64,000 nucleotides of DNA from an uncultured delta proteobacterium. GTDB lineage: Bacteria; Desulfobacterota; Binatia; UBA9968. The position numbers were made by a program, and so were the translations under genes. The DNA lies in the NCBI GenBank assembly GCA_963728565.1, contig CAVSLC010000023.1:256001-320000 (forward strand), read 5' to 3'. Below, one piece after another: positions 6,661 to 29,397 of this stretch. Within the stretch, counting starts at the first letter, position 1, and each line of letters begins with the position of its first letter. Below the pieces are notes generated by a model. It saw only the letters and a list, made by a program, of their open reading frames with translations, was not told the origin of the DNA and did no database searches.

Positions 6661-6898
6661 CCCAAATTCCGACGTCGAATTAAAAATGCCGGAAGCGAGG
6701 TGGAATCCTGGAGCAGCGAAGGCGTCCGACTGTGAAGTTTAAGAGTTATTTTGCGCTCTCGAACGTCGTTGCGATGAGGCTTAAACATCCCTCAAATCAC
6801 CGCTGAGCGATCTCTGCTCAGAGGCAGAAACCCATTCGCCTTCGCTGCGGAAGGATTCTGCCTCGCGCTTCCTGTCAATCGCAATGCGGCATCCGGGT
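6661..6898 (+). ncRNA. ~240-nt dispersed structured element, copy 1 (candidate ncRNA/leader)
   Basis: Highly similar to 26093-26331. Nested complementary arms GAGGTGGAATCCT/AGGATTCTGCCTC and GCAGCGAAGGCG/CGCCTTCGCTGC, plus internal hairpin CTGAGC-gatctct-GCTCAG. The repeat is certain; RNA function is inferred. Confidence 0.55.
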
Positions 6899-7865: not shown

Positions 7866-9789
7866 GTGGAGAAAAAAGCACAAGATTTGTCGATCGCGTA
7901 CATCATCGCGGTAATGGCGCTGATGTTTATCGCGCAGTATTTCTTGATTGCCAAGTCGGTGGAAACTCTTTCCTACAGCCAATTCAAAACTCTGCTCAAG
8001 AATAATCAGGTCAGCGATATCGTCATTCGCGAAAAGTACATTAACGGCTCGATCCAGCCCGAGGCGGTCAAAGACATTCTCGCGCCCCAACGAATCAACG
8101 AATTGGGCGAGCGCGCCAAAAAGCCGGTGCCGTTTGAGGTCGTCCGGGTCGAGGACCCTCGTTTGATGTTGGAGCTCGAAGAGGCGGGGACTCCTTTCAA
8201 AGGGGAGACCACAAGCGATTGGCTTTCAGTTGCCCTCTCCTGGCTCATGCCGATTGTCATCTTCTTTGTCTTGTGGAGCCTCCTATCCAACCGCATGGGC
8301 AGGGCCGGCGGCGGCTTGATGCAGATCGGCAAGAGCAAGGCGAAGGTATACATCGAAAAAACCACCGGTGTCACATTCGCCGACGTTGAAGGCATCGACG
8401 AAGCGGAAGAGGAGTTGATCGAAATCGTCGAATTCTTGAAGCACCCGGAGAAGTATCAGCGGCTCGGCGGTCACCTGCCGAAAGGAGTGCTGCTGGTGGG
8501 GCCGCCAGGCACGGGTAAGACGCTGCTAGCCCGGGCCGTGGCCGGCGAGGCCGGTGTGCCGTTCTTCAGCATCTCCGGCTCCGACTTTGTTGAAATGTTC
8601 GTCGGGGTCGGCGCCGCGCGTGTGCGAGATCTGTTCGCTCAAGCCGCAGCGAATGCGCCGAGCATCATTTTCATCGATGAGCTCGATGCGCTTGGAAAGG
8701 CGCGCGGCATCAGTATGCTGAGCAGCCACGACGAACGCGAGCAGACGCTCAACCAGCTGCTCGCGGAGATGGATGGCTTCGATCCCAACAGAAATGTGAT
8801 CATGATGGCTGCAACCAATCGACCGGAAATTCTCGATCCTGCGCTGTTGCGCCCCGGGCGATTTGATCGACAGGTGCTGGTAGATCGGCCGGATGTGAAG
8901 GGCCGTGAGAAAATTCTGCTGCTTCACGCTAAGAAGATCAAACTGGCGCCCTCAGTGGACCTCGCGTTGATCGCGGCAAAGACCCCAGGGTTCGTTGGCG
9001 CCGATTTGGCGAATATCGTTAACGAAGCGGCGTTGTTGGCTGCGCGGCAGAGCAAGGATGCCGTGGAAGACAACCGATTTCGACGAAGCCATCGAGCGGG
9101 TGGTTGCCGGCCTGCAGAAAAAAAGCCGGGTCATGAGCCCGAAGGAAAAGAAAACCATAGCCTATCATGAGTCCGGTCATGCCTTGATCGCGGAGCTGGT
9201 TCCTGGGGCCGATCCGGTCTCCAAAATATCCATCATCCCACGCGGCATCGCCGCGTTGGGTTATACGCAGCAAACACCGACCGAAGACCGCTATTTGATG
9301 ACTCGGTCGGAACTCCTGGCGCGCATTCATGTGCTGCTCGGCGGGCGCGTTGCCGAAGAAATGGTTTTCAACGATGTCTCGACCGGAGCCCAGAACGATT
9401 TGCAGCGGGCAACGGAAATCGCCCGGACGATGGTTACGCAGTTCGGCATGAGCGATAAATTGGGGTTAGTCTCGCTCGAGGGACCGCGGACGCCGCTATT
9501 TCTCCCTGTGCCGGTTCAGAGCGCAAAAGACTACAGCGATGACACGGCGAGGGTGATCGATGCCGAAGTCAAGGAGATCCTTACGGACACCCACCACAAA
9601 GTGCAAGAGATTTTGGCGGCGCACCGCGCGGCTCTCGAAGAGCTTGCCCAATTGCTGTTGAAAAAAGAGGTAGTCGAAAGGCCGGCGCTGCAGGCGATTC
9701 TGAAGGTCATCAGCATCGATCAGGCGAGGGAAAGAAAGAAATCGGGTGATTTGACTAAGGATGAAAATTCCAAATTAAATACCAAATAG
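7866..9789 (+). CDS. ftsH: ATP-dependent zinc metalloprotease FtsH, +1 frameshift near 9070
   Basis: Two TM helices, [16 protein letters not shown] and PGRFDR in frame 1; DFDEAIER and HESGH protease domain continue in the next frame (ORF 8995-9789). Confidence 0.93.
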
Positions 9790-18306: not shown

Positions 18307-19260
18307 ATGTCTCGAAGCGAAAGACAGGGCGAAATTACGCCGGAGCAACTTAGGCATCGACAGATCCATAACTACTGGGCAGGAGACTTGAGTAGAAGAG
18401 TTTATCTACTGCGGCGGCAGAGAAAAGCCATTCTGGACAACTGCCGGCGGATCGCCGTGGTGGGTGCCAGCAGCGACCCCAACAGTCGGAGCTATCTCGC
18501 CATTGAGAGGCTGCTTGGCCTCGGCCTGGAAATCATTCCGATATTTACCGATCGCGAAAGCTTTCTTGGCTTGCGCTGTTTTCGAAGTTTGCGTGACGTT
18601 CCGGGCAAAATCGATATTGTGCAGATCTATCGCAACGGCGGTATCGAATTGGTCGAGCTGGCGCGCGCGGTCGTGGATAAAGGCGTGACCGCGTTTTGGA
18701 TCGAACAGGGAGTCGCGGGATCACGAGAGGTCGAGGATATTCTGGCTAACGGTCACGTCCAGCTGGTGGAGTACGAGAGTCTAGAAACCGAGTATATGAA
18801 ACATGTCCCCTTCCCAGCAGCGCCACTCTCTGTGGCTCGCAAGGACCGGAAGACGACTAAGGTTAAGGAAAGAATGTCTAAAAATCCTGCGACGGTGAAA
18901 CCGGATGACGGGCTCAAAGATGCGATCTGGAAAATGGAGCATGGCCACTTCCGCCACCTGCCGGTGGTGGATGAAAAGGACAAGCTGATCGGCATGCTGA
19001 CCGATCGCGACATTCGCCTGGTCCGGCCGTCACTTGCCTTCTTAAACAAGGAGGAAGCCGATGTGCAACTCTGGTCAATCGCGGTGCAACAAGCCGCCGT
19101 GTTCGATCCCGTCCGCGTCAAGCCGGAAAATTCGTTGAAGGAGGCGGCCGATCTGATGTTACGCTGGCATGTCGGCGGACTACCGGTGGTCGACGATCAT
19201 GAAAACGTCGTCGGCATGATCACGTATACGGACCTATTACGCGAGTTCGTGGGGCAGTAA
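18307..19260 (+). CDS. CoA-binding (YccU-like) domain fused to a CBS pair
   Basis: IAVVGASSDPNSRSY...SLRDVPGKIDIV...FWIEQG, followed by two CBS repeats. Confidence 0.85.
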   Translation: MSRSERQGEITPEQLRHRQIHNYWAGDLSRRVYLLRRQRKAILDNCRRIAVVGASSDPNSRSYLAIERLLGLGLEIIPIFTDRESFLGLRCFRSLRDVPGKIDIVQIYRNGGIELVELARAVVDKGVTAFWIEQGVAGSREVEDILANGHVQLVEYESLETEYMKHVPFPAAPLSVARKDRKTTKVKERMSKNPATVKPDDGLKDAIWKMEHGHFRHLPVVDEKDKLIGMLTDRDIRLVRPSLAFLNKEEADVQLWSIAVQQAAVFDPVRVKPENSLKEAADLMLRWHVGGLPVVDDHENVVGMITYTDLLREFVGQ

Positions 19261-19394: not shown

Positions 19395-19410
19395 TGGCAC
19401 TTCTCTTGCT
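19395..19410 (+). promoter_or_regulatory. Putative sigma54 promoter (near-perfect consensus)
   Basis: TGGCACTTCTCTTGCT, 45 nt upstream of ATG 19455. Confidence 0.8.
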
Positions 19411-19454: not shown

Positions 19455-20171
19455 ATGTTCACTGACAAAATCGAGCTCAACGATTTAGATAAAATGGATG
19501 CGGAATATAAAGATCTACTCGGGCGCGTGTTGACGATCCAAGCCGACTGCGAGATCGGCGGACCGCACCTCTATGTAGAAACGATGCTGCCGGCGGCGCC
19601 CAGCAAGCTCGATCAACTGATCGTCGCGCGCACGGCGGCCGAGGAGATCGACCATTTCCGCAAAGTGGCGCGAGTGGCGGGGGATATGGGGGTCGAAGTT
19701 TCATTTGTGCTGAGCCAGCCCAACGAAAAGCGTTTCGTCGACTCCTTCCGTGGTCTCATCACAACCTGGGAAGACCATGCCGTCTTCGGCTTTTTGATCG
19801 ATCGGGTCGGGCGATACCAGCTTGAAGAATTCTATGACTGCAGTTATCTGCCGCTGCAGCGAATTCTTCCGGACATTGTCACAGAAGAACTGGGACACAT
19901 CGAATACGGTTACAACAAAACCCTTGAACTCATGTCCAAGGGTGACGAGCAAAAAGAGCGCGTCCAAAAGGCGATAGATTATTGGTACGTTCGCGCGCTG
20001 GACATGTTCGGTCGCAGCGAATCCAAACGCGCCGAGCGCTACCTTTATTGGGGACTAAAAAGACGCAGCAATGAGCAGGCTCGCGAAGACTACATCCGTG
20101 AAGTCAATCCGATCCTGCTGAGCTTGGGTCTCAAGGTTCCCGATCCGCTCGAAGGCCGCCGCTATATCTGA
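19455..20171 (+). CDS. PaaA/PaaC/BoxB-like ferritin-superfamily diiron protein
   Basis: QADCEIGG, AP..., EEIDH and EELGH (two ExxH), QKAIDYWYVRALDMFG, WGLKRRSNEQAR, LGLKVPD. Confidence 0.85.
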   Translation: MFTDKIELNDLDKMDAEYKDLLGRVLTIQADCEIGGPHLYVETMLPAAPSKLDQLIVARTAAEEIDHFRKVARVAGDMGVEVSFVLSQPNEKRFVDSFRGLITTWEDHAVFGFLIDRVGRYQLEEFYDCSYLPLQRILPDIVTEELGHIEYGYNKTLELMSKGDEQKERVQKAIDYWYVRALDMFGRSESKRAERYLYWGLKRRSNEQAREDYIREVNPILLSLGLKVPDPLEGRRYI

Positions 20172-20411: not shown

Positions 20412-20879
20412 ATGAGCGAGGGAAAAACTTATTTCTACGAGACTGAAGTCGAGTGGACAGGCGCAAAGGACCTGAAACTTAGCGGCGGCCAGCAGCCTTC
20501 GATTGCTGCCGGGGCGCCGCCGGAGTTCCATGGCCGGGAGGAAAACTGGTCCCCTGAGCATCTGTTCGTCGCGTCGCTAAACAGTTGCTATGTGCTGACA
20601 CTGATTGCGATCGCGGAATTCTCGAAAATCGCTCTCGTTAGTCTGTCTTCCACGGCGAAGGGAAAATTAGAGAAGCTGCCAGGGAGCGGTTATCAGATCA
20701 CCGAGATTGTCGTAAAGCCAAAGGTCGTTCTTGCGTCGGCCGGCGATCTCTCGCGCATGCCGCGGATACTGGAAAAAGCCAAAGAGAGCTGTTTTGTCTC
20801 CAACTCGATCAAGAGCACGATCAAGATCGAACCCGAAGTCTTTCATCGTCAGACCCAGACCTCTCCCTGCCCTTTGTGA
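20412..20879 (+). CDS. OsmC/Ohr family protein
   Basis: PPEFHG...WSPEHLFVASLNSC...KAKESCFVSNSI (two catalytic Cys). Confidence 0.92.
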   Translation: MSEGKTYFYETEVEWTGAKDLKLSGGQQPSIAAGAPPEFHGREENWSPEHLFVASLNSCYVLTLIAIAEFSKIALVSLSSTAKGKLEKLPGSGYQITEIVVKPKVVLASAGDLSRMPRILEKAKESCFVSNSIKSTIKIEPEVFHRQTQTSPCPL

Positions 20880-21033: not shown

Positions 21034-21963
21034 ATGGAACGCCCCGGTCTTACTCGCTTCGCATGGCTCTCGATCGCCGCGGCCTTGGCTACCATTGCTC
21101 TGAAGGCTCTGGCGTATTTCGTCACCGATTCCGTAGGGCTGTTGTCGGATGCACTGGAGTCATTGGTGAATCTGGCTGCGGCTCTGATGGCGCTGGCAAT
21201 GCTGACTGTTGCCGCTCGACCGCCTGATGAGATTCATGCCTTTGGCTACAGCAAAGCCGAATATTTCTCCAGTGGCGTTGAAGGGGCGCTGATTGTCCTC
21301 GCCGCGGCGATCATCGCCTGGACGGCGGTGCCACGGTTGATTACGCCACAGCCCTTGGAGCAAGTCGGTACCGGTCTGGCGGCATCGATCATAGCGGCGG
21401 CGCTCAATTTTTTGGTTGCCCGCCATTTGCTCAGCGGCAGCAAACAGTATCGCTCCATCACACTGGAAGCGGATGCCCATCACCTGATGACCGATGTCTG
21501 GACGTCGGCCGGTGTGGTTGCCGGAATCGCGATTGTCGCCCTGACCGGCTGGACGCGTCTCGATCCGGTGATTGCGCTGTGTGTCGCCGTTAATATTTTA
21601 TTGATGGGAGTGCGACTGCTGCGCCGGTCGTTGCTTGGACTTTTAGACACGGCTTTGGGTCGCACCGAAGAAAAACTTATAAAAGGAATCCTCAGCCGAT
21701 ATGCCGGTCAGAATCTTTACTATCATGCGCTGCGCACGCGGCAGGCAGGAGTGCGGTCGTTTATTTCCTTCCATGTGCTGGTGCCGGGAGAATGGACCGT
21801 TCAGCAAGGGCATGATCTGGTCGAACGACTCGAGCGCGATATACGCACCGCGATTCCGGGAGCCACCGTGTTTACTCACCTCGAGCCGATCAATGACCCG
21901 TCAGCTTGGCAGGACTTAACGCTTGATCGGACAGATGATGTAATCCGCAGCAAAGGTAGCTGA
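21034..21963 (+). CDS. Cation diffusion facilitator (CDF/FieF family) transporter
   Basis: [41 protein letters not shown] and HLEP. Confidence 0.95.
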
Positions 21964-22053
21964 TGCAAAATCAAAGGATCATGGTTTAATGAAAGCGCGT
22001 AGTAAAATCATAAAGCCTAGATTGCGTTCCCATAAACAAAGGAGAAGCCGTTT

Positions 22054-22206
22054 ATGCCTGACTGGTTGTGGTTCGTCGCTTTTTTCGTGGCCTACATTGT
22101 GCTGATGCGCTGGGTGCTGCCTTATCTGGGCGTGCGAACTTGAATGGCCGGTGACGTCGAGTCTCGACGCACTAGCAACAAAGAGCAACGCACAGCGGAA
22201 AAGTGA
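22054..22206 (+). CDS. Candidate Sec-containing single-TM microprotein MPDWLWFVAFFVAYIVLMRWVLPYLGVRT-U-MAGDVESRRTSNKEQRTAEK (29 aa if TGA is a stop)
   Basis: AAGGAG RBS, hydrophobic helix, in-frame TGA at 22141-22143 followed by a strong hairpin; paralog at 25747 has TCA at the same codon. Confidence 0.6.
22147..22176 (+). promoter_or_regulatory. Candidate bacterial SECIS element for TGA 22141
   Basis: GGTG-a-CGTCGA[GTC]TCGACG-CACT hairpin; apical loop starts with GU after a 17-nt spacer from UGA. Confidence 0.55.
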
Positions 22207-22453
22207 TGCCGGGAAGCATCGAGATTAATGGAAATCAGGTCCAGCAGACACCGAGGTCGCCTTGCCCGGTGGAATAAGTTCTCATTCCAGCAGTTCCTAG
22301 GATCGATTTAAAGAGTCAGTTGCAGCGAATCGTATTCTGATGAGCATGGAATCACGGCTCCTCATTTTCATAAATGCAAATTAGTCTGACCTTTTTCGCA
22401 GGTCTGGCAAGCCCTGACGGCTAAATTCCTCAAACCGGAAACAGAGTCAGTGG

Positions 22454-22469
22454 TGGCATATCGGTTGCT
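22454..22469 (+). promoter_or_regulatory. Putative sigma54 promoter for the exporter operon
   Basis: TGGCATATCGGTTGCT; differs by one base from the site at 26059. Confidence 0.78.
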
Positions 22470-22550
22470 CTTCTCTAAGCCGTGACCCTGGTTGCGCTCG
22501 AAGTTTGCACAAACGCAACAACACTGGGTCGGTGCAGGAGGAGAGATAGT

Positions 22551-23828
22551 GTGAAATCTTACCTGGGTATGGGCCGCAGTCGGGTGTTGCTGGTTTGCGG
22601 TGCGCTGGCGATGTTTGCGGCTGCTTTGTGGCTGTGGCTCCGCCCCGCCACCGTGACCACCGCCGAAGTGAGCGCCCGCGAGATCAGTCCAGCTATACAC
22701 GCGGTCGGGACGGTGGAAGCCAGGGTCCTGGTTCAGCTGGCCGCCAAGATCGGCGGGCGAATCAGCAGAATGCATGTCGATCAGGGTGACACCGTGCGAG
22801 CCGGCCAGATCCTTGCTCAACTGGAGGATTCTGAATCGACTGCGGAGGTTCAACGCGGCGCTGCGAACTTGGAACGAGCCAAGCTTGCTTTACATGCGCA
22901 GCAAGCAGCCCTGCTGCGGGCGCAAGCAGCACTCTCCGCCGCTGAAGCAATCGTCCTCAAAGCGCGCGCAAACCGTGCGCTTGCTTATGCCAATGCGGCG
23001 CGCTGGGGAAAGCTCGAGGCCGCGGAACTCGTAGCCAAGATCGAGCTCGATGAACGGGCTAACGCCGCCGAATTGGCTGATGCTGAGTTAAAAAGTGCCG
23101 AGGCGCTGCGCGAAGCGGCAGCCAAAGAGGCCGCGGTTCAGCAAGTCGCATTGAAGATCGTTCCCCATGACATCGCCGCTGCAGCGGCTGCCCTTGCTTC
23201 GCTTCAGGCTAGAAAAGCCGACACGGTAATCGCCAGTTCGACCGACGGTTATATAGTGAGCCGGGAAGTTGAAACCGGCGGCGCGGTCAATCCCGGAACG
23301 CCAATTCTCAAGCTCGCTGATCCGCGCACCATCTGGGCTACCGTGTATGTCGACGAGCGCGAAGCAGGTTCTCTCGAGATCGGAAACGCAGCCGACATCA
23401 CGTTGCGCTCGATGCCGGAGCGGGTCTTGACTGGCAAGGTCGCGCGCATCCGGCGCGAAAGCGATCGCGTTACCGAGCAGCTCACGGTGGACATAAGCTT
23501 CGATACACCGCCGGATCAATTGCGCCTCGGCCAGCAAGCAGAGGCGCTAATCCGAGCGGCGCCGCGAAATGTTATTGCCATGTCCGATGCAGCAGTTGTG
23601 CAGTCCGCGAGGGGAGCCGGCGCCTGGATCGTTGTCGCTGGCCGCCTGCGCCTCCGGCCAGTGCGGTTAGGGGCAGTCGATCCCTCCGGCTGGGTTGAAG
23701 TACTGCAAGGACTTTCTGTCGGCGATCACGTGGTGGTCGCTCCCGGCAAATTCTCAGATCCTAAAAACGAGGGGCGGCGCGTCATCGCGCAGCCGCGATC
23801 CTCAACCATCGCGGTCGCCAGCCAGTAA
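22551..23828 (+). CDS. Efflux periplasmic adaptor (MFP/MacA-like) subunit
   Basis: N-terminal TM, IGGRISRMHVDQGDTVRAGQILAQL lipoyl half-motif, long Ala-rich coiled coil, VLQGLSVGDHVVV; AGGAGGAG RBS before GTG. Confidence 0.9.
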   Translation: MKSYLGMGRSRVLLVCGALAMFAAALWLWLRPATVTTAEVSAREISPAIHAVGTVEARVLVQLAAKIGGRISRMHVDQGDTVRAGQILAQLEDSESTAEVQRGAANLERAKLALHAQQAALLRAQAALSAAEAIVLKARANRALAYANAARWGKLEAAELVAKIELDERANAAELADAELKSAEALREAAAKEAAVQQVALKIVPHDIAAAAAALASLQARKADTVIASSTDGYIVSREVETGGAVNPGTPILKLADPRTIWATVYVDEREAGSLEIGNAADITLRSMPERVLTGKVARIRRESDRVTEQLTVDISFDTPPDQLRLGQQAEALIRAAPRNVIAMSDAAVVQSARGAGAWIVVAGRLRLRPVRLGAVDPSGWVEVLQGLSVGDHVVVAPGKFSDPKNEGRRVIAQPRSSTIAVASQ

Positions 23829-23832
23829 ACTC

Positions 23833-25029
23833 ATGAATCTTGCGATTCGAGACGTAAGATACCGTTTTGGCCGCTTTCTTCTGACCGCCTTCGGCCTTGG
23901 TTTGCTGCTTGCGACCGTCATGGCAATGGGCGGAATTTACCGGGGCATGGTGGAGGACGCCCTCAGCATCGTGCGCGCCCCTGACGCTGATCTGTGGGTG
24001 GTGCAGAAAGACACCAATGGTCCGTTCGCCGAGACCTCAAGGGTGCCCGATGATCTCCATCGCGTGATGCGCGCGGTCCCGGGGGTGCGCGAAGCCAATG
24101 CGATCGCATTTCAGACCATTCAGCTCGACTATGAAAACAAGTCGCTCCGGGTGCAGTTGATTGGCTACCGACCAGGAAATTTAGGGGCGCCCTCAGCGGT
24201 GGCGGCAGGCCGTCCTCTCACAACCCACCGCTATGAGATGGTGTTGGACCGCAAGGCGGGAATCCCCGTCGGTGCACGCCTGCCACTGGGAAGGTCGACC
24301 TTTACCGTGGTCGGCTTAACGGAGGGCATTGTTTCGAGTTCCGGCGATTCGACGGCATATGTATCGCTGCAGGACGCCCAGGAACTGCAGTTTCTCAAGG
24401 GCAACGAGGCGGTGCGCAACGAGCGGGCGCGGCTTGTCGCCGACTTACAATCAAACCCAATACTCACCGGAGTCCCGGCGGCTTCGCTGTTTTCGATAGT
24501 GCAGAACACCAATTTGGCCAACGCCATACTCGTGCGGATCGAGCCTTGGGCTAATGCTGAGGAAGTCGCTCGACGAATCGAGCGCTGGAACCATTACCGC
24601 GCGCTGACCACGGCGGAGCAAGAAGATGTATTGGCCAAGAATGTGATCGAACGGGCCCGCCAGCAAATCATGCTTTTTCGCATTATCCTGCTCGCAGTAT
24701 CGACGGTGATCATCGCGTTGATTATCTACACAATGACGATAGAGAAGACGCGCGATATAGCGACATTGAAGATCATTGGCGCTCCGAACATGAAAATCGT
24801 CAGTTTGATTCTACAAGAGTCGGTCGCCCTTGGGGTGCTCGGGTATGGATTCGGCGCGGCGCTCATCAATCTGGTCTATGAGTATTTTCCGCGCCGGGTT
24901 GCGATTCTTGCCTTTGATCAGGGCGTCCTGTTCGGCATCGTTTTGGCGATCTGTGTCATCGCAAGTATTCTCGGGATAAGACGCGCTCTTGGCATTGATC
25001 CGACCACCGCGATGGGAGGGGGCGCGTAA
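23833..25029 (+). CDS. ABC transporter permease (FtsX/MacB-like, type VII)
   Basis: MNLAIRD...[21 protein letters not shown]; four-TM topology. Confidence 0.92.
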
Positions 25030-25754
25030 TGGCCGTGTTGGTAGCGGAGCAGATCGTTAAAATCTTCGGTCAGGGCGAGGGCCAAGTCGCCGCTTTGAAG
25101 GACGCCTACGTTTCCATCGAGGCGGGAGAGATGGTTGGCTTGATGGGGCCGAGTGGTTCGGGCAAGACGACGCTTCTGCGGGCTCTCTCATTAATCGATC
25201 CGCCGACCAGCGGTCAGATCACCATCGGTAATGAGCTGGTGTTTCAAGGCTCCCGAGTGCTGACGGATGATAGGCAGCTACGCCGCAGGCGCATGGGAAT
25301 CATCTTCCAGGCCTACAATCTCATTCCGTTTCTAACCTCAGTGGAAAACGTCGCGCTTGTGCTGACGCTCAACGGAATTTCGAGAAACGAGGCGTTGGCG
25401 CGCGCGCACAACTTGCTCAACCGCCTCGAACTGGGGCATCGTGCCGACACCTACCCAGCGACGCTTTCAGGCGGGGAGCAACAGCGGGTTGCCGTCGCCC
25501 GAGCTGTCATCAATGAGCCAGTGATGATTCTTGCGGATGAACCGACGGCAGCCCTCGACACCGAACGAGGCAAGGCGGTGATGGATCTGCTCCGGCTGCT
25601 TGGCCGCGTGCAGCGAGCAGCCGTGATCGTTGTGACACACGATGAAAGAATGATCGAAGGCTTTGATCGCATCTATCATATGATTGACGGCCGGATCACG
25701 AACCATCTGAGTTCGGCAGAGCGCCAAGCGACGGCGGATGAAATCCATGCGTGA
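25029..25754 (+). CDS. ABC transporter ATP-binding protein (LolD/MacB-like)
   Basis: [24 protein letters not shown] and VTHD motifs. Confidence 0.95.
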
Positions 25755-25880
25755 CTGGTTGTGGTTCATTGCATTTTCTCGCGCTGGGTGTTGCCTCGGC
25801 TGGCGGCGCCCGGTTCAATGGCCCACGTCCACGCGACCGCACGAAAAATAAAGCAAGCTAGCAAAGGGAAAGTGAAATGA
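25747..25880 (+). pseudogene. Decayed paralog of the 22054 microprotein (19-nt deletion; TGA codon is TCA)
   Basis: [10 protein letters not shown] then, after a frameshift, RWVLPRLAAPG-S(TCA 25815-25817)-MA, aligning codon for codon with RWVLPYLGVRT-TGA-MA. Confidence 0.7.
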
Positions 25881-26058
25881 AAAGTTCGCCTCAAAATCAT
25901 CAGAGCCAATCATACAGAGTCTAATGATGATTACGTGATCCGCGCCGCGAGAGGAAGGATTGAATCGTTCACTTCTTAATCTTGACAAACGGACGGAATC
26001 TTTTTTGTGTTCCTGACAATCTCGCCGTGGCCATCATTTATTAAGCAAGCGTTTCCAC

Positions 26059-26074
26059 TGGCATATCTGTTGCT
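26059..26074 (+). promoter_or_regulatory. Putative sigma54 promoter for the structured leader and YeeE operon
   Basis: TGGCATATCTGTTGCT; the predicted TSS (~26085) lies a few nt before the structured element. Confidence 0.8.
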
Positions 26075-26092
26075 CCAAGGCCTTAGTTAATG

Positions 26093-26331
26093 CCGGATTC
26101 CGCAGTCGAACTAAAGATGCCGCAAGCGAGGTGGAATCCTGGAGCAGCGAAGGCGTCCGACTGTGAAGTTTCAAAGTGTTTTTGCGCTCTCGCAGGTCGT
26201 TGCTATGAGGCTTAAACATCCCGCTTGAAGCACCGCTGAGCGATCTCTGCTCAGAGGTAGAAACCCATCGACTTCGCTGCGGAAGGATTGTGCCTCGCGC
26301 TTTCTGTCAATCGCAACTGCGGAATCCGGGT
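26093..26331 (+). ncRNA. ~240-nt structured element, copy 2 (candidate ncRNA or 5' leader)
   Basis: Perfect 14-bp terminal stem CCGGATTCCGCAGT (26093-26106)/ACTGCGGAATCCGG (26316-26329), same inner stems as copy 1; ends about 10 nt before the AGGAGGAG RBS. Confidence 0.6.
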
Positions 26332-26353
26332 TGATTCGAAAGGAGGAGAACAA

Positions 26354-26818
26354 ATGAAAAGGACAGGTTGGATCATAATGATCACAGTATTCGCGGTGAT
26401 CTTCAGTGTGGCGAATTCTTTCGCGCAGCAAGGACCCGGAACCATGTGGCGCGGCAGCGGCGGATGGGGGCAAGGAAGCCAGTACAACAAGATGTACGAT
26501 CCGAAGGCGGTGGAAACGATTAGCGGGGAAGTAACCAACGTGGATCGTATTACGCCGGCCAAAGGGATGAGCGGTGGACTTCACATGAGTGTGAAGACCG
26601 ACAAGGAGACGATCTCCGTTCATCTGGGTCCGAGCTGGTATCTTGAAAACCAGGACGTCAAGATCGAAGCGAAAGACAAAGTCGAAGTGAAGGGCGCGAG
26701 GACCACTTTTGCAGGCAAACCGGCGATCATCGCGGCGGAAGTGAAGAAGGGCGATGAAGTTTTGAAATTGCGTGACGACAACGGCTTTCCTGTGTGGAGC
26801 GGTTGGCGCAGGCATTAG
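26354..26818 (+). CDS. Secreted OB-fold protein (MamS/MamX-like domain family)
   Basis: Signal peptide, Gly-rich linker, MYDPKAVETISGEV...VHLGPSWYL...KVEVKG...LRDDNGFPVWSG. Confidence 0.7.
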   Translation: MKRTGWIIMITVFAVIFSVANSFAQQGPGTMWRGSGGWGQGSQYNKMYDPKAVETISGEVTNVDRITPAKGMSGGLHMSVKTDKETISVHLGPSWYLENQDVKIEAKDKVEVKGARTTFAGKPAIIAAEVKKGDEVLKLRDDNGFPVWSGWRRH

Positions 26819-26917
26819 TTTCGACGCAACCCTTGATTCGCACGGTTTTGGTCGGCGGCTGTTTGGAACGGAAAAGCTCTCCCACCGCCGGTTCGCTGAC
26901 ACTGGGAGGAAACAGCT

Positions 26918-27439
26918 ATGGATTGGCTACGTAGAGAAGAGTGGCCCTGGTGGCAGGCGGGTTTATTACTCGGCCTGCTAAACATGGCGGCATTTTTCAC
27001 GGCGGACTATTACCTGTCGGTTTCGACGACTTTCTCGCGCGCCGCGGCAATGGTGGTTGGACTGGTCGCACCGGAGCATGTGGCGGCAAACGCATACTGG
27101 CAGAAGGTTAAGCCGATAGTCGATTGGCAATTCATGCTTGTTCTGGGAATTCCACTCGGCGCCTATCTGGCCGCGCGACTGAGTCAAAAACCCGTCGAGT
27201 TCACCGGATCGCTTCCCGATATGTGGGTCAGCCGATTCGGTACGAGCAATGCGCAGCGTTGGGTTGTCGGTATATTGGGCGGTATTTTCGTCGGTTTCGG
27301 TGCGCGCCTGGCCGATGGCTGAACCAGCGGCCACGCTCTCAGTGGAGGGCTTCAAATGGCCGTGAGCAGTTGGATCTTTCTGATCGCGATGATGATCTCG
27401 GGCACGATCATGGCGCGGCTAATTTTCCGGAGGGTGTAG
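26918..27439 (+). CDS. YeeE/YedE (PmpA-like) sulfur/selenium transporter-family protein, predicted selenoprotein (TGA 27320-27322)
   Basis: GARLADG-TGA-TSGHALSGGLQMAVSSWIFLIAMMISG...RRV-TAG. The family motif is GARxAxGCTSGH, and readthrough restores the last TM helix and ends 2 nt before the next ATG. Confidence 0.9.
27328..27362 (+). promoter_or_regulatory. Bacterial SECIS-like hairpin for TGA 27320
   Basis: CGGCCA-c-GCTCTC[AGTG]GAGGGC-ttcaaa-TGGCCG; GU in the apical loop, 18-nt spacer from UGA. Confidence 0.75.
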
Positions 27440-27441
27440 CT

Positions 27442-28029
27442 ATGGGTCCATTAGAAATTACCGGTCCAGCGCGTCTTGCGCTCGGACTCGCAACCGGAAT
27501 TCTCTTCGGTTTCATTTTACAAAAGGCACAGGTCACCCAGTATCAAAAGATCGTGTCTTTCTTTCGTTGGAGCGACCTGACTGTCCAGAAAGTCATGTTC
27601 GCGGCGATACTCGTCGGTATGGTCGGGGTGTATGCGCTGCATGATCTTGGTTTGGTCAATCTTCACATCAAGCCGACCTTGCTTGGCGCCAATATCCTTG
27701 GCGGCCTGATTTTCGGCATCGGCATGTTGCTCTTGGGCTTTTGACCCGGCACCTGTGCTGCGGCCTTCGGCGAAGGCCGTTTAGATGGTTTGTTTCGCGG
27801 CGTTCTGGGCATTTTGATCGGCGCGGGTATTTACTCGGAAATCTATCCGTTGATTCAGGATAATCTTCTTAAGCTCGGCGATTTCGGTAAATTGACCATT
27901 CCAACCGTCCTAGGGGTCAATCCATGGTTCGTGATCATACCGTTTACGATCATCGTCAGCGGAATTCTCCTGTGGATGGACCAGATTGATAAGCGAAAGA
28001 CGAGTAACGCAAGAGAGTTAACACGATAA
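27442..28029 (+). CDS. YeeE/YedE (PmpB-like) protein, predicted selenoprotein (TGA 27742-27744)
   Basis: GGLIFGIGMLLLGF-TGA-PGTCAAAFGEGRLDG. The family motif is GxCPGT, and the downstream ORF 27790-28029 is in the same frame. Confidence 0.9.
27760..27780 (+). promoter_or_regulatory. Bacterial SECIS-like hairpin for TGA 27742
   Basis: GCGGCCTTC[GGC]GAAGGCCGT; G-first loop, 24-nt spacer from UGA. Confidence 0.65.
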
Positions 28030-28361
28030 CGTGATCTACAGGCGGGCGTAAATAATCATGAGGGGGAAAAGATGCAACAGAAAAAGGTACTCATAACCAT
28101 GTTGGCGGGCGCGCTACTTGTTTCAGCCAATCCGCTCTCTAGCGGCTGAGCAAGATCTGTAATAAATTTGATTTTTTGGAACAGTTTAGCATCAAGAGTT
28201 CTAACTTATGGGTAAATGGTTCTGTTTTTGAACAGGAAGGATAATGTTGTTGTGAATTATAGAGTGGAAGATAGATGGTTGGTCAGAGAATAGACAGATT
28301 CGCTGCAGAGTCTCGCTTTTACAGTTGGTCGATGGCATACGTGGATATCGGCAAAGGATCT

Positions 28362-28470
28362 GTGAAAACTCTCGTTCTGCTACGACACGGCGAAAGTACC
28401 TGGAACAAAGAAAACCGCTTCACAGGCTGGGTCGATGTGGGCCTAACAGATGGAGGAATCCGAAGTCGCC
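28362..28470 (+). pseudogene. gpmA: N-terminal fragment of 2,3-BPG-dependent phosphoglycerate mutase
   Basis: [28 protein letters not shown], after which similarity is lost. Confidence 0.85.
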
Positions 28471-28509
28471 CGTGCCACGCGCCTTGCGGTGACCATAGAT
28501 GGAGGCGGC

Positions 28510-28632
28510 ATGAAAAATAAAAGAATCGAAACGTTCGACGATTGGAAAGATGTCTTTCACATGTGGCAAAAAGATATCAACTACGACACCGCGCTCTTTG
28601 ATTCCGTTCTGCAGGGCTATGACTTCACCGCG
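28510..28632 (+). pseudogene. N-terminal fragment, probably of a long PaaI/BoxB-like diiron protein
   Basis: GGAGG RBS then [26 protein letters not shown]; truncated where it abuts the ZIP remnant. Family assignment is from recollection of similar N-termini. Confidence 0.45.
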
Positions 28633-29135
28633 ACTTGTAGAGCAACGCTCTGCCTTTGTCCCAGCCGCCGTGAATGAGCATGCCAAAGTCGCCCAGCTCC
28701 TACGGCACTTCATGGGCCGCGGCGGGATCCAGGTGCTGATGCCGACCCGCACGTCGATGAGAAAAGCTCCGGCCATAGCCAGACCGCCGATGAAATTGTG
28801 CACGCCGTCGGCGATCAAAATTAAATACGTCAAGGGCCGGTGCTCGCTCGGCGGCGGTGGCAGTGATGCCAGTGGAGAAACTGTTCGAGCGCCAGAAACA
28901 GGGTGAAACCGAGCAGCGTCCACAGATAAACGGAAAGTCGGTTGCCGCTTTTCTCGATGGCGGCGGGTATCATGTGCAGCAACGCGCCGCCGAGCAGCGT
29001 GCCGGCGGCCAGGGCGACCAGCGGCAACAGTCATTTCTTGAGCGTTGCTTCGCTGAAAAAAAGCGTGAGGCTGCCGACAAGCGCGATCGCGCTCATCAGA
29101 ATCCCGCTGGAAACAATCCAAAGAAATGTAGTCAC
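28632..29135 (-). pseudogene. ZIP-family metal transporter, disrupted
   Basis: VALAAGTLLGGALLHMIP, LEQFLHWHHCH, ADGVHNFIGG and HEVP*ELGDFG spread over several frames with internal stops; C-terminus missing. Confidence 0.85.
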
Positions 29136-29397
29136 GGTGTTGTTTCCAGGCGCAACCACTGCCAAGCGCCGAGCTGCGCGTCCGCGCAACGAGCACAGCT
29201 CGAACGCAATCCTTCTCGAGTTTCCTGCCTGGTCAGCGCAACGCCGGTCGAGATCGTACCGCCAGTCAAGCGCGCAGCCCACGCGGCGCCGACGGTCTCT
29301 CATTCGACGCGGCTTCCACGCCAAGGCAAAGATCGGGTCCAGCTACGGCGCCAGCTCCAAGAGCAGACCCTTGGGCGGCTTTTCTTCGCCGCTGCGG

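Follow-up and report, generated by a model that had tools for sequence, protein, structure and literature searches.

The stretch of DNA analysed here, hereafter the window, comprises 64,000 nucleotides from an uncultured bacterium of the Desulfobacterota (Binatia; UBA9968), positions 256,001 to 320,000 of contig CAVSLC010000023.1 in assembly GCA_963728565.1. Between its positions 21,034 and 28,029 it carries the genes for a CDF-family cation efflux transporter, a 50-residue membrane microprotein, a MacAB-like ABC exporter, an OB-fold protein and two short YeeE-type proteins (YeeE1 and YeeE2), which an initial annotation had interpreted as one co-regulated, possibly sigma-54-controlled system for trafficking selenium, sulfur or metal species. 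We consider it fairly probable instead that envelope and stress genes, each unit transcribed separately, lie here in a rearranging neighbourhood that is specific to the lineage. Among them are three genuine selenoprotein genes and two modules that the data support. The in-frame TGA codons of the microprotein, YeeE1 and YeeE2 genes are, judging from their conservation, very probably all selenocysteine (Sec, U) codons, and the microprotein represents a family of tiny membrane selenoproteins that is probably new.

Read through its UGA, the microprotein has the sequence MPDWLWFVAFFVAYIVLMRWVLPYLGVRT-U-MAGDVESRRTSNKEQRTAEK; the open reading frame (ORF), the in-frame TGA and the hairpin downstream that had marked it as a Sec candidate in the initial annotation were all recovered. 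Members of the family consist of one membrane helix followed by R-W-V-L-P-x-x-G-V-x-T-U-M-S-x-x-C, with T-[U/C]-M-S-x-x-C as the core motif, and this motif probably lies directly after the helix on the cytoplasmic side. No Pfam or NCBIfam model matches the microprotein or its relatives, and a word-based search returned 28 relatives, mostly 29-residue stubs that end exactly at the TGA. The family was sampled by six-frame searches of 401 genomes of the phylum, together with 6 loci from a genome collection and 80 metagenome loci. A match was present in 45 of the 401 genomes, each of the 45 with one in-frame TGA. The same codon occupies the site in 6/6 genome-collection loci, including metagenome-assembled genomes labelled Acidobacteriota, Armatimonadetes and Spirochaetota, and in 79 of the 80 metagenome loci, the remaining locus having TGC. 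Beyond the TGA come about 20 further open codons before a stop codon, which varies, and a cysteine follows 4-6 residues after the site in 34/37 sequences and in 71/80 metagenome loci. All 37 sequences carry a hairpin about 15-20 nucleotides (nt) past the UGA. In their MAFFT alignment (ungapped-style), 72% of cells are paired at the hairpin, compared with 33-40% when the pairing is slid, double changes occur in 7/7 pairs, and none of 500 shuffles reaches the covariation score.

A profile built from 36 members retrieved 1811 representative proteins at E <= 0.001, and the named members of the family are all called 'hypothetical protein'. In the best 150 of these 1811 representatives, the residue at the site, located by pattern match, is Cys in 117 and Trp in 18, with a few R, L, G, S and E. 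At least one protein with Trp at the site (P0156) corresponds to metagenome locus L199, which has TGA there (L201 was also compared); a TGA read with a different genetic code is therefore the probable origin of the 18 Trp forms. Taken together, these features are the classical signature of a Sec/Cys family. Co-occurrence with selA did not discriminate, the gene being present in 42 of the 44 other positive genomes and in 371 of the 401 overall; the two microprotein-positive genomes without selA are 90-93% complete. The T-U-M-S-x-x-C family was not found in the literature searched, including the available text of PMC13188914 and PMC12013277, whose supplementary tables lay outside the search and may list it, and the NCBIfam models of the families named in the available text of these two papers gave no match to the microprotein. 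Small proteins cut at a UGA are invisible to standard annotation, and this one is public mostly as a 29-residue stub or in the Trp form. Its roughly 1800 representative clusters, none with a Pfam or NCBIfam model, would be a concrete addition to prokaryotic selenoproteomes.

The two YeeE genes supply the other Sec sites. YeeE1 and YeeE2 score 86.5 and 69.4 bits against Pfam PF04143 (Sulf_transp, gathering cut-off 27), with YeeE1 matching profile positions 171-307, the C-terminal half, and YeeE2 positions 12-157, the N-terminal half. When aligned to the solved YeeE of Spirochaeta thermophila (6LEO/8J4C), U135 of YeeE1 falls on C293 and U101 of YeeE2 on C91, while the position of C22 is Thr in the window's pair. 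According to the available text of PMC7449682, C22, C91 and C293 line the pore of this protein, the C91A and C293A mutants are inactive and C22A still complements. The available text of PMC11582611 describes PmpA and PmpB as short C- and N-terminal YeeE halves with one conserved Cys each, the equivalent of Cys293 in PmpA and of Cys91 in PmpB, and proposes that they form a heterodimer. The correspondence of YeeE1 and YeeE2 to the two halves, together with the alignment of their sites to C293 and C91, therefore indicates a PmpA/PmpB-type channel in which both pore residues are encoded by TGA.

Both sites are TGA, each followed by a conserved hairpin, in the window and in the related genomes G001, G010 and G014. 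In a separate sample of 29 YeeE-pair loci from the phylum, the two genes are adjacent in all 29 and the YeeE2 site is always Cys; at the YeeE1 site 21 have a stop and 8 have Cys, and in the 27 of the 29 loci that were re-read these stops are all TGA. In other YeeE subfamilies of the phylum, nine more distant loci (L114-L122) carry the stop only in the PmpB-type half and pair it with a Cys-containing partner, and two full-length YeeE genes (L123, L124) have a stop at the C91-type site. Sec-containing YeeE/YedE proteins with the motif GUxSG are an already listed selenoprotein family in the available text of PMC13188914 and PMC9312934. This kind of protein is known, and the double-Sec pair is, among the loci examined, confined to the window's clade. 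The NCBIfam models for TsuA and for YedE/FdhT were not reached (at best 56.5 bits versus 400 and 36 bits versus 350). The TusA family (PF01206) has no match anywhere in the window's assembly, which is 4.53 Mb in size and 80.6% complete, and rhodanese has none on the window's contig, its 7 matches all lying on other contigs, in agreement with the earlier remark that no TusA/YeeD or rhodanese partner stands beside the YeeE genes.

The assembly encodes tRNA-Sec and, side by side on one contig, selA, selB and selD, the last itself with an in-frame TGA; by this gene content the organism is able to make selenoproteins. That the three TGAs are ordinary stops, the YeeE genes broken and the microprotein a 29-residue peptide followed by a regulatory hairpin, strikes us as extremely improbable. 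The 29-residue form does stand in public protein sets (at least 20 of the 28 word-search matches), the energies of the single hairpins are unremarkable, and decayed genes do exist in the window, namely a second microprotein copy and a ZIP transporter; but the TGAs fall exactly at essential or invariant Cys columns, they persist in different genera and phyla, the frames 3' of them are open and conserved, Cys homologues align through the sites, the hairpin covaries, and the Sec machinery is complete. The three Sec sites first proposed are thus supported by conservation of the TGA in relatives, by the Cys alternatives and by the machinery. The companion claim, that no other convincing UGA site exists in the window, agrees with what was scanned: of 79 ORF pairs that share a frame, are separated by a TGA and have at least 40 residues on either side, 15 were compared with Pfam, and in these no domain crossed the TGA. 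As a separate observation, a rhodanese-domain match elsewhere in the genome (G000:C4:7887-8159) contains one in-frame TGA and may be a further selenoprotein gene.

The OB protein encoded 5' of the YeeE pair has a hydrophobic N-terminal leader, read from sequence, no match in the Pfam library used and a weak NCBIfam match to the C-terminal part of MamS (26.5 bits, cut-off 200). Its single-sequence fold was poor (predicted local distance difference test, pLDDT, 61.5), and an alignment-based AlphaFold2 model (pLDDT 76.9) was used instead. In Foldseek this model matches the OB domains of ExoVII, Stn1, RPA32 and LysRS (E about 2e-4, TM-score on the query 0.41), and its five-stranded barrel identifies the protein, as modelled, as an OB fold. 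The family numbers 3230 homologues with single or tandem domains; these carry the precomputed label PF26390, which is without an entry in the Pfam copy used. The order OB-YeeE1-YeeE2 is kept in four genomes of three genera (the window's, G001, G010 and G014), and none of the 29 YeeE-pair loci of the phylum has an OB gene within about 1.5 kb. In G001, which belongs to the same genus (L031 1440-1680), the OB gene is without its leader part and without the sigma-54-type box, and an unrelated gene ends just 5' of it, so that either a rearrangement or a join made during assembly may lie behind this.

RNA libraries contain contigs, 90-99% alike to the window, over positions 26938-27848, 26903-27474 and 26795-27269. 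Between them, contigs of this kind reach over the CDF gene, the OB gene and the YeeE pair and span the OB/YeeE1 and YeeE1/YeeE2 junctions, which is weak support for the view that relatives express the OB-YeeE unit. Positions 22185-25028 are uncovered save for a conserved ATPase motif region and the microprotein is covered next to not at all, which is uninformative on expression. The leader between the sigma-54-type box and the OB gene folds strongly (z = -4.3), and the initial annotation had reported a structured RNA here. The fold is real, and it is so stable because the leader contains a non-coding element of about 240 nt with 15-nt inverted ends, of which there are at least 15 genomic copies at 70-95% identity, including a second in the window at about 6666-6898 and others on G000 contigs C3, C5, C9, C11, C13, C15 and C20. 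The OB leader of G014 is without the repeat, its box lying about 40 nt before the OB start. The element is a MITE-like (miniature inverted-repeat transposable element) mobile repeat and not a regulatory RNA; an Rfam scan found no family in the window.

The first module would thus be an operon under a sigma-54-type promoter, coding for a periplasmic OB protein together with a YeeE channel of the split PmpA/PmpB type. If the analogy with YeeE holds, both halves would contribute to a single hourglass-shaped pore, and two selenols at its constriction would pass an anion of sulfur or selenium (thiosulfate, zero-valent sulfur or a selenium species) through the inner membrane. Outside, the OB protein may serve to capture the substrate or to deliver it. 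Selenols differ from thiols in their chemistry, so the substrate range of a double-Sec PmpAB may differ as well, and the pair is a natural test of the role of the YeeE pore cysteines.

The microprotein is linked to exporter genes in several of the window's relatives. The transporter assignments are backed by Pfam and NCBIfam at the superfamily level only, the specific NCBIfam models (MntE, MacA/B, DevA/B/C, TsuA, YedE) all scoring below their curated cut-offs; the CDF protein, for instance, reaches 216 bits against TIGR01297, above its cut-off, and 285 bits against its nearest named model, MntE, below a cut-off of 500. In the window the microprotein gene starts 90 nt past the CDF gene; it also follows a CDF gene in L032 and L125, and in G014 its stop codon runs into the start of the CDF gene. 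Both L033 and L034 have an intact microprotein gene directly 3' of MacB-ABC, and an ABC ortholog (77-81% identity) stands directly 5' of it, from an overlap to a gap of 23 nt, in 10 of the 80 metagenome loci. The decayed copy behind the window's own exporter, whose ATG overlaps the 3' end of the ABC gene, sits where relatives have an intact gene; as first described it is a ruin, with a 19-nt deletion, TGA changed to TCA and the hairpin destroyed. A CDF gene was next to the microprotein in 1 and YeeE1 in 2 of the 80 metagenome loci, counts that are lower bounds, since these contigs are short. Near 29 microprotein loci of the phylum no CDF, MacB/FtsX or Sulf_transp domain was found (Pfam on 60 of 93 flanking ORFs), and in L035-L037 the neighbours differ again. 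The link between microprotein and exporters is real in one clade and is not a property of the family.

The second module would be the microprotein itself, whose gene in the window's clade closes a MacAB-ABC operon on the 3' side or adjoins a CDF gene and whose product may be a redox- or metal-sensitive accessory of exporters; in other lineages it stands alone. That a widespread, uncatalogued selenoprotein family, its Sec/Cys pair placed at the membrane surface, was recruited in this clade as the fourth gene of MacAB-type operons or as a partner of CDF exporters, possibly to serve as a selenol redox or metal switch on export, and that the clade also has a PmpAB channel with an all-selenol constriction for sulfur or selenium species, is an explanation we hold as plausible, though at less than an even chance. 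Another account, to which we give a distinctly smaller chance, is that the microprotein is an autonomous, membrane-anchored thiol/selenol protein, either a small oxidoreductase or a sensor of redox state or metals, that is functionally independent of exporters and stands near them through inherited gene order. It would explain the varied neighbours in the 29 phylum loci and in L035-L037, the great breadth of the family (1811 representatives) and the 45 of 80 metagenome loci where no other gene of the window lies within 2.5 kb (35 have at least one, and many of these contigs are short), but it fits less well with the tight position after the ABC gene in the 10 metagenome loci, L033, L034 and the window's decayed copy, and with the start/stop overlap with the CDF gene in G014.

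Sigma-54-type promoters are the other feature that had suggested a single system. The pattern TGGCAY-N5-TTGCW matches the window three times (19395, 22454 and 26059), compared with 0.10 expected by chance, and the 4.53-Mb assembly 39 times. Such a box stands 5' of the OB genes of the window, G010, G014 and metagenome locus L126 and of two OB copies in G022, and, at the same position, 5' of PaaA-like genes in L126, L144 and L152. The near-identical promoters noticed initially before the exporter and YeeE operons do exist, both 16-mers standing where they were read, at 22454 and 26059, but their common core, TGGCATATCNGTTGC, is a consensus sigma-54 core that occurs at five genomic sites, the other three before unrelated genes. 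A search for a shared activator site 5' of seven sigma-54-type promoters gave only A/T-rich words. The sigma-54 activator domain has 21 matches elsewhere in the genome, and rpoN is present in 4/4 relatives searched.

Gene order around the microprotein is fluid. In close relatives the same set recurs in shuffled orders (CBS, PaaA-like, OsmC, MacAB-ABC or CDF, OB, YeeE1): CBS-PaaA-OsmC-micro-OB-YeeE1 in L126, MacB-ABC-micro-OB in L133, L135 and L138, MacAB-ABC-micro-OsmC and then OB in L143, and CBS-OsmC-micro-CDF-OsmC, other genes and then OB-YeeE1-YeeE2 in G014, where the examined stretch holds no MacAB homologue. The microprotein has a CBS homologue no more than 2.5 kb away in 18 of the 80 metagenome loci, and also one nearby in G014 and L033, and an OsmC gene neighbours it in 13 of the 80. 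The components of the supposed system thus recur, reshuffled, in close relatives, whereas across the phylum each part is found alone. Among the other genes of G014 are three large ORFs between CDF/OsmC and OB-YeeE (L029 6449-11837, -), one of about 1280 codons, one membrane-rich and one Cys-rich, which by eye look like a molybdopterin oxidoreductase, a membrane anchor and an iron-sulfur subunit.

Several results weigh against the picture of selenoprotein modules in a shared neighbourhood. Neighbours of the microprotein across the phylum are varied, with a convergent D-Ala-D-Ala carboxypeptidase gene in 8/29 loci and PLD-type enzymes, MFS transporters and histidine kinases in others, and the exporter link, seen in one clade only, may be inherited gene order. 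The window's microprotein is, like its nearest relatives, without the family's second Cys, so that it may work differently or be decaying. Hairpin energies of the single sites against shuffles are modest (z = -1.5, -1.3 and -0.1), and Sec incorporation, transport and sigma-54 dependence are all deduced from sequence. The OB copies of G022 have no YeeE nearby and lie next to ArsP permease and OsmC genes. The RNA-library contigs may contain DNA and cannot prove a single transcript. On the regulatory side, the window encodes no enhancer-binding protein, and rpoN was not found in the 80.6%-complete assembly.

The initial proposal was that all parts form one sigma-54-co-regulated system for selenium, sulfur or metal, with import through YeeE and export through MacAB or CDF. 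Part of it stands, namely the conservation of OB-YeeE1-YeeE2 behind a sigma-54-type box and the recurrence of the gene set in close relatives (L126; L133, L135 and L138; G014), and three boxes within 7 kb out of 39 in 4.53 Mb are in its favour. We nevertheless regard the proposal as improbable, since the window holds no activator gene, no upstream motif is shared, the same promoter core stands before unrelated genes, each part occurs without the others outside the clade, MacAB is missing from the examined G014 stretch, and CDF and YeeE1 adjoin the microprotein in few metagenome loci (lower bounds). The attraction of the one-system picture comes mostly from clade-level gene order and consensus promoters. 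The co-occurrence data fit a fluid, clade-specific neighbourhood, possibly one for envelope, redox or metal stress, and not a fixed machine. None of the conclusions depends on genome G012, which is flagged as unpublished.

The features of the locus are collected in Table 1; the CDF transporter, the MacAB-like exporter, the OB-fold protein and the two YeeE genes are present where the initial annotation had placed them, supported by Pfam and, for the OB protein, by the structure model.

Table 1. Genes, promoter boxes, hairpins and repeat of the locus (window coordinates)
Feature	Position	Strand	Evidence
CoA-binding protein with two CBS domains	18307..19260	+	Pfam CBS, CoA_binding_2
Sigma-54-type -24/-12 box TGGCACTTCTCTTGCT, 5' of PaaA-like gene	19395..19410	+	pattern match
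PaaA/PaaC-like ferritin-like di-iron protein	19455..20171	+	Pfam PaaA_PaaC, 1.7e-24
OsmC-family protein	20412..20879	+	Pfam OsmC
CDF-family cation efflux transporter	21034..21963	+	Pfam Cation_efflux and ZT_dimer; TIGR01297
Single-pass membrane selenoprotein candidate, 50 residues, U30 = TGA 22141-22143	22054..22206	+	
SECIS-like (selenocysteine insertion sequence) hairpin of microprotein gene, CGUCGA-GUC-UCGACG, 14 nt after UGA	22155..22169	+	fold, covariation
Sigma-54-type box TGGCATATCGGTTGCT, 82 nt 5' of MacA start	22454..22469	+	pattern match
Periplasmic adaptor, MacA/DevB/HlyD type	22551..23828	+	HlyD_D23, HlyD_3; TIGR01730 above cut-off
MacB-type permease	23833..25029	+	MacB_PCD and FtsX
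ABC ATPase, DevA/LolD/MacB-like	25029..25754	+	Pfam, NCBIfam
Decayed second microprotein copy	25747..25851	+	alignment with intact copy and L033
Sigma-54-type box TGGCATATCTGTTGCT before OB-YeeE unit	26059..26074	+	pattern match
MITE-like repeat in OB leader	26092..26330	.	15-nt terminal inverted repeats, genomic copies
OB-fold protein with N-terminal signal-like leader	26354..26818	+	AlphaFold2, Foldseek
YeeE1, PmpA-like (C-terminal-half type), U135 = TGA 27320-27322, motif DG-U-TSGH; hairpin 27335-27350	26918..27439	+	
YeeE2, PmpB-like (N-terminal-half type), U101 = TGA 27742-27744, motif GF-U-PGT; hairpin 27760-27780	27442..28029	+	

Other genes of the window also appear incomplete. The ZIP-family transporter gene (28400-29330, -) seems broken, with an in-frame TGA after about 100 codons, later frame changes and Pfam Zip matches on two separate ORF pieces. 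At 28275-28520 (+) only the first 30 or so residues of a histidine-phosphatase (phosphoglycerate-mutase-like) domain are present, which looks like a gene fragment. An FtsH-like ORF (7866-9455, +) has the extracellular, AAA and lid domains and no Pfam match past a TGA at 9168; its peptidase part seems to have been lost or to lie in another frame. Of the sampled words, fractions of 0.28 and 0.23 occur in DNA runs with a soil label, from which no habitat claim is drawn.

Known systems resemble the parts of the locus to different degrees. AcrZ, which acts with AcrB, and KdpF are small single-pass membrane proteins that bind transporters, and SelK and SelS are eukaryotic single-pass selenoproteins with Sec in a short tail outside the membrane. 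The microprotein is like the former in size, in its one membrane helix and in its transporter-gene neighbours, and like the latter in carrying Sec on a short extramembrane tail, the likeness being one of build and gene position. Proteins of the BOF/YgiW type are periplasmic bacterial OB-fold stress proteins; the window's OB protein shares with them a signal-like leader and a single OB barrel, and differs in having no Pfam match and only the weak match to the MamS C-terminal part. The exporter has the order of the MacAB/DevABC tripartite exporters, adaptor, MacB_PCD-FtsX permease and separate ATPase, whereas the specific NCBIfam models (MacA, MacB, DevA/B/C) remain below their cut-offs and the microprotein is a fourth gene in the window's clade.

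With the TsuA/YeeE thiosulfate importers (S. thermophila 6LEO; E. coli YeeE with YeeD/TsuB), the YeeE pair shares PF04143 and aligned pore residues, but the window's channel is split into two genes, its C22 equivalent is Thr, and the assembly has no TusA/YeeD-family gene. The listed Sec-YeeE/YedE proteins (PF04143, GUxSG, e.g. WP_012471001.1) have the same motif as YeeE1 (G-U-T-S-G) and, as presented in the available text of PMC13188914 and PMC9312934, one Sec per protein, whereas in the window the partner half also carries Sec (F-U-P-G-T). A further likeness is to PmpA/PmpB of Serratia sp. ATCC 39006 and relatives, which are likewise two adjacent short halves with one conserved pore residue each. 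In the available text of PMC11582611 these residues are Cys and the proteins about 130 residues long, whereas in the window both are Sec, the proteins have 173 and 195 residues, and an OB-fold gene and a sigma-54-type box stand 5' of the pair.

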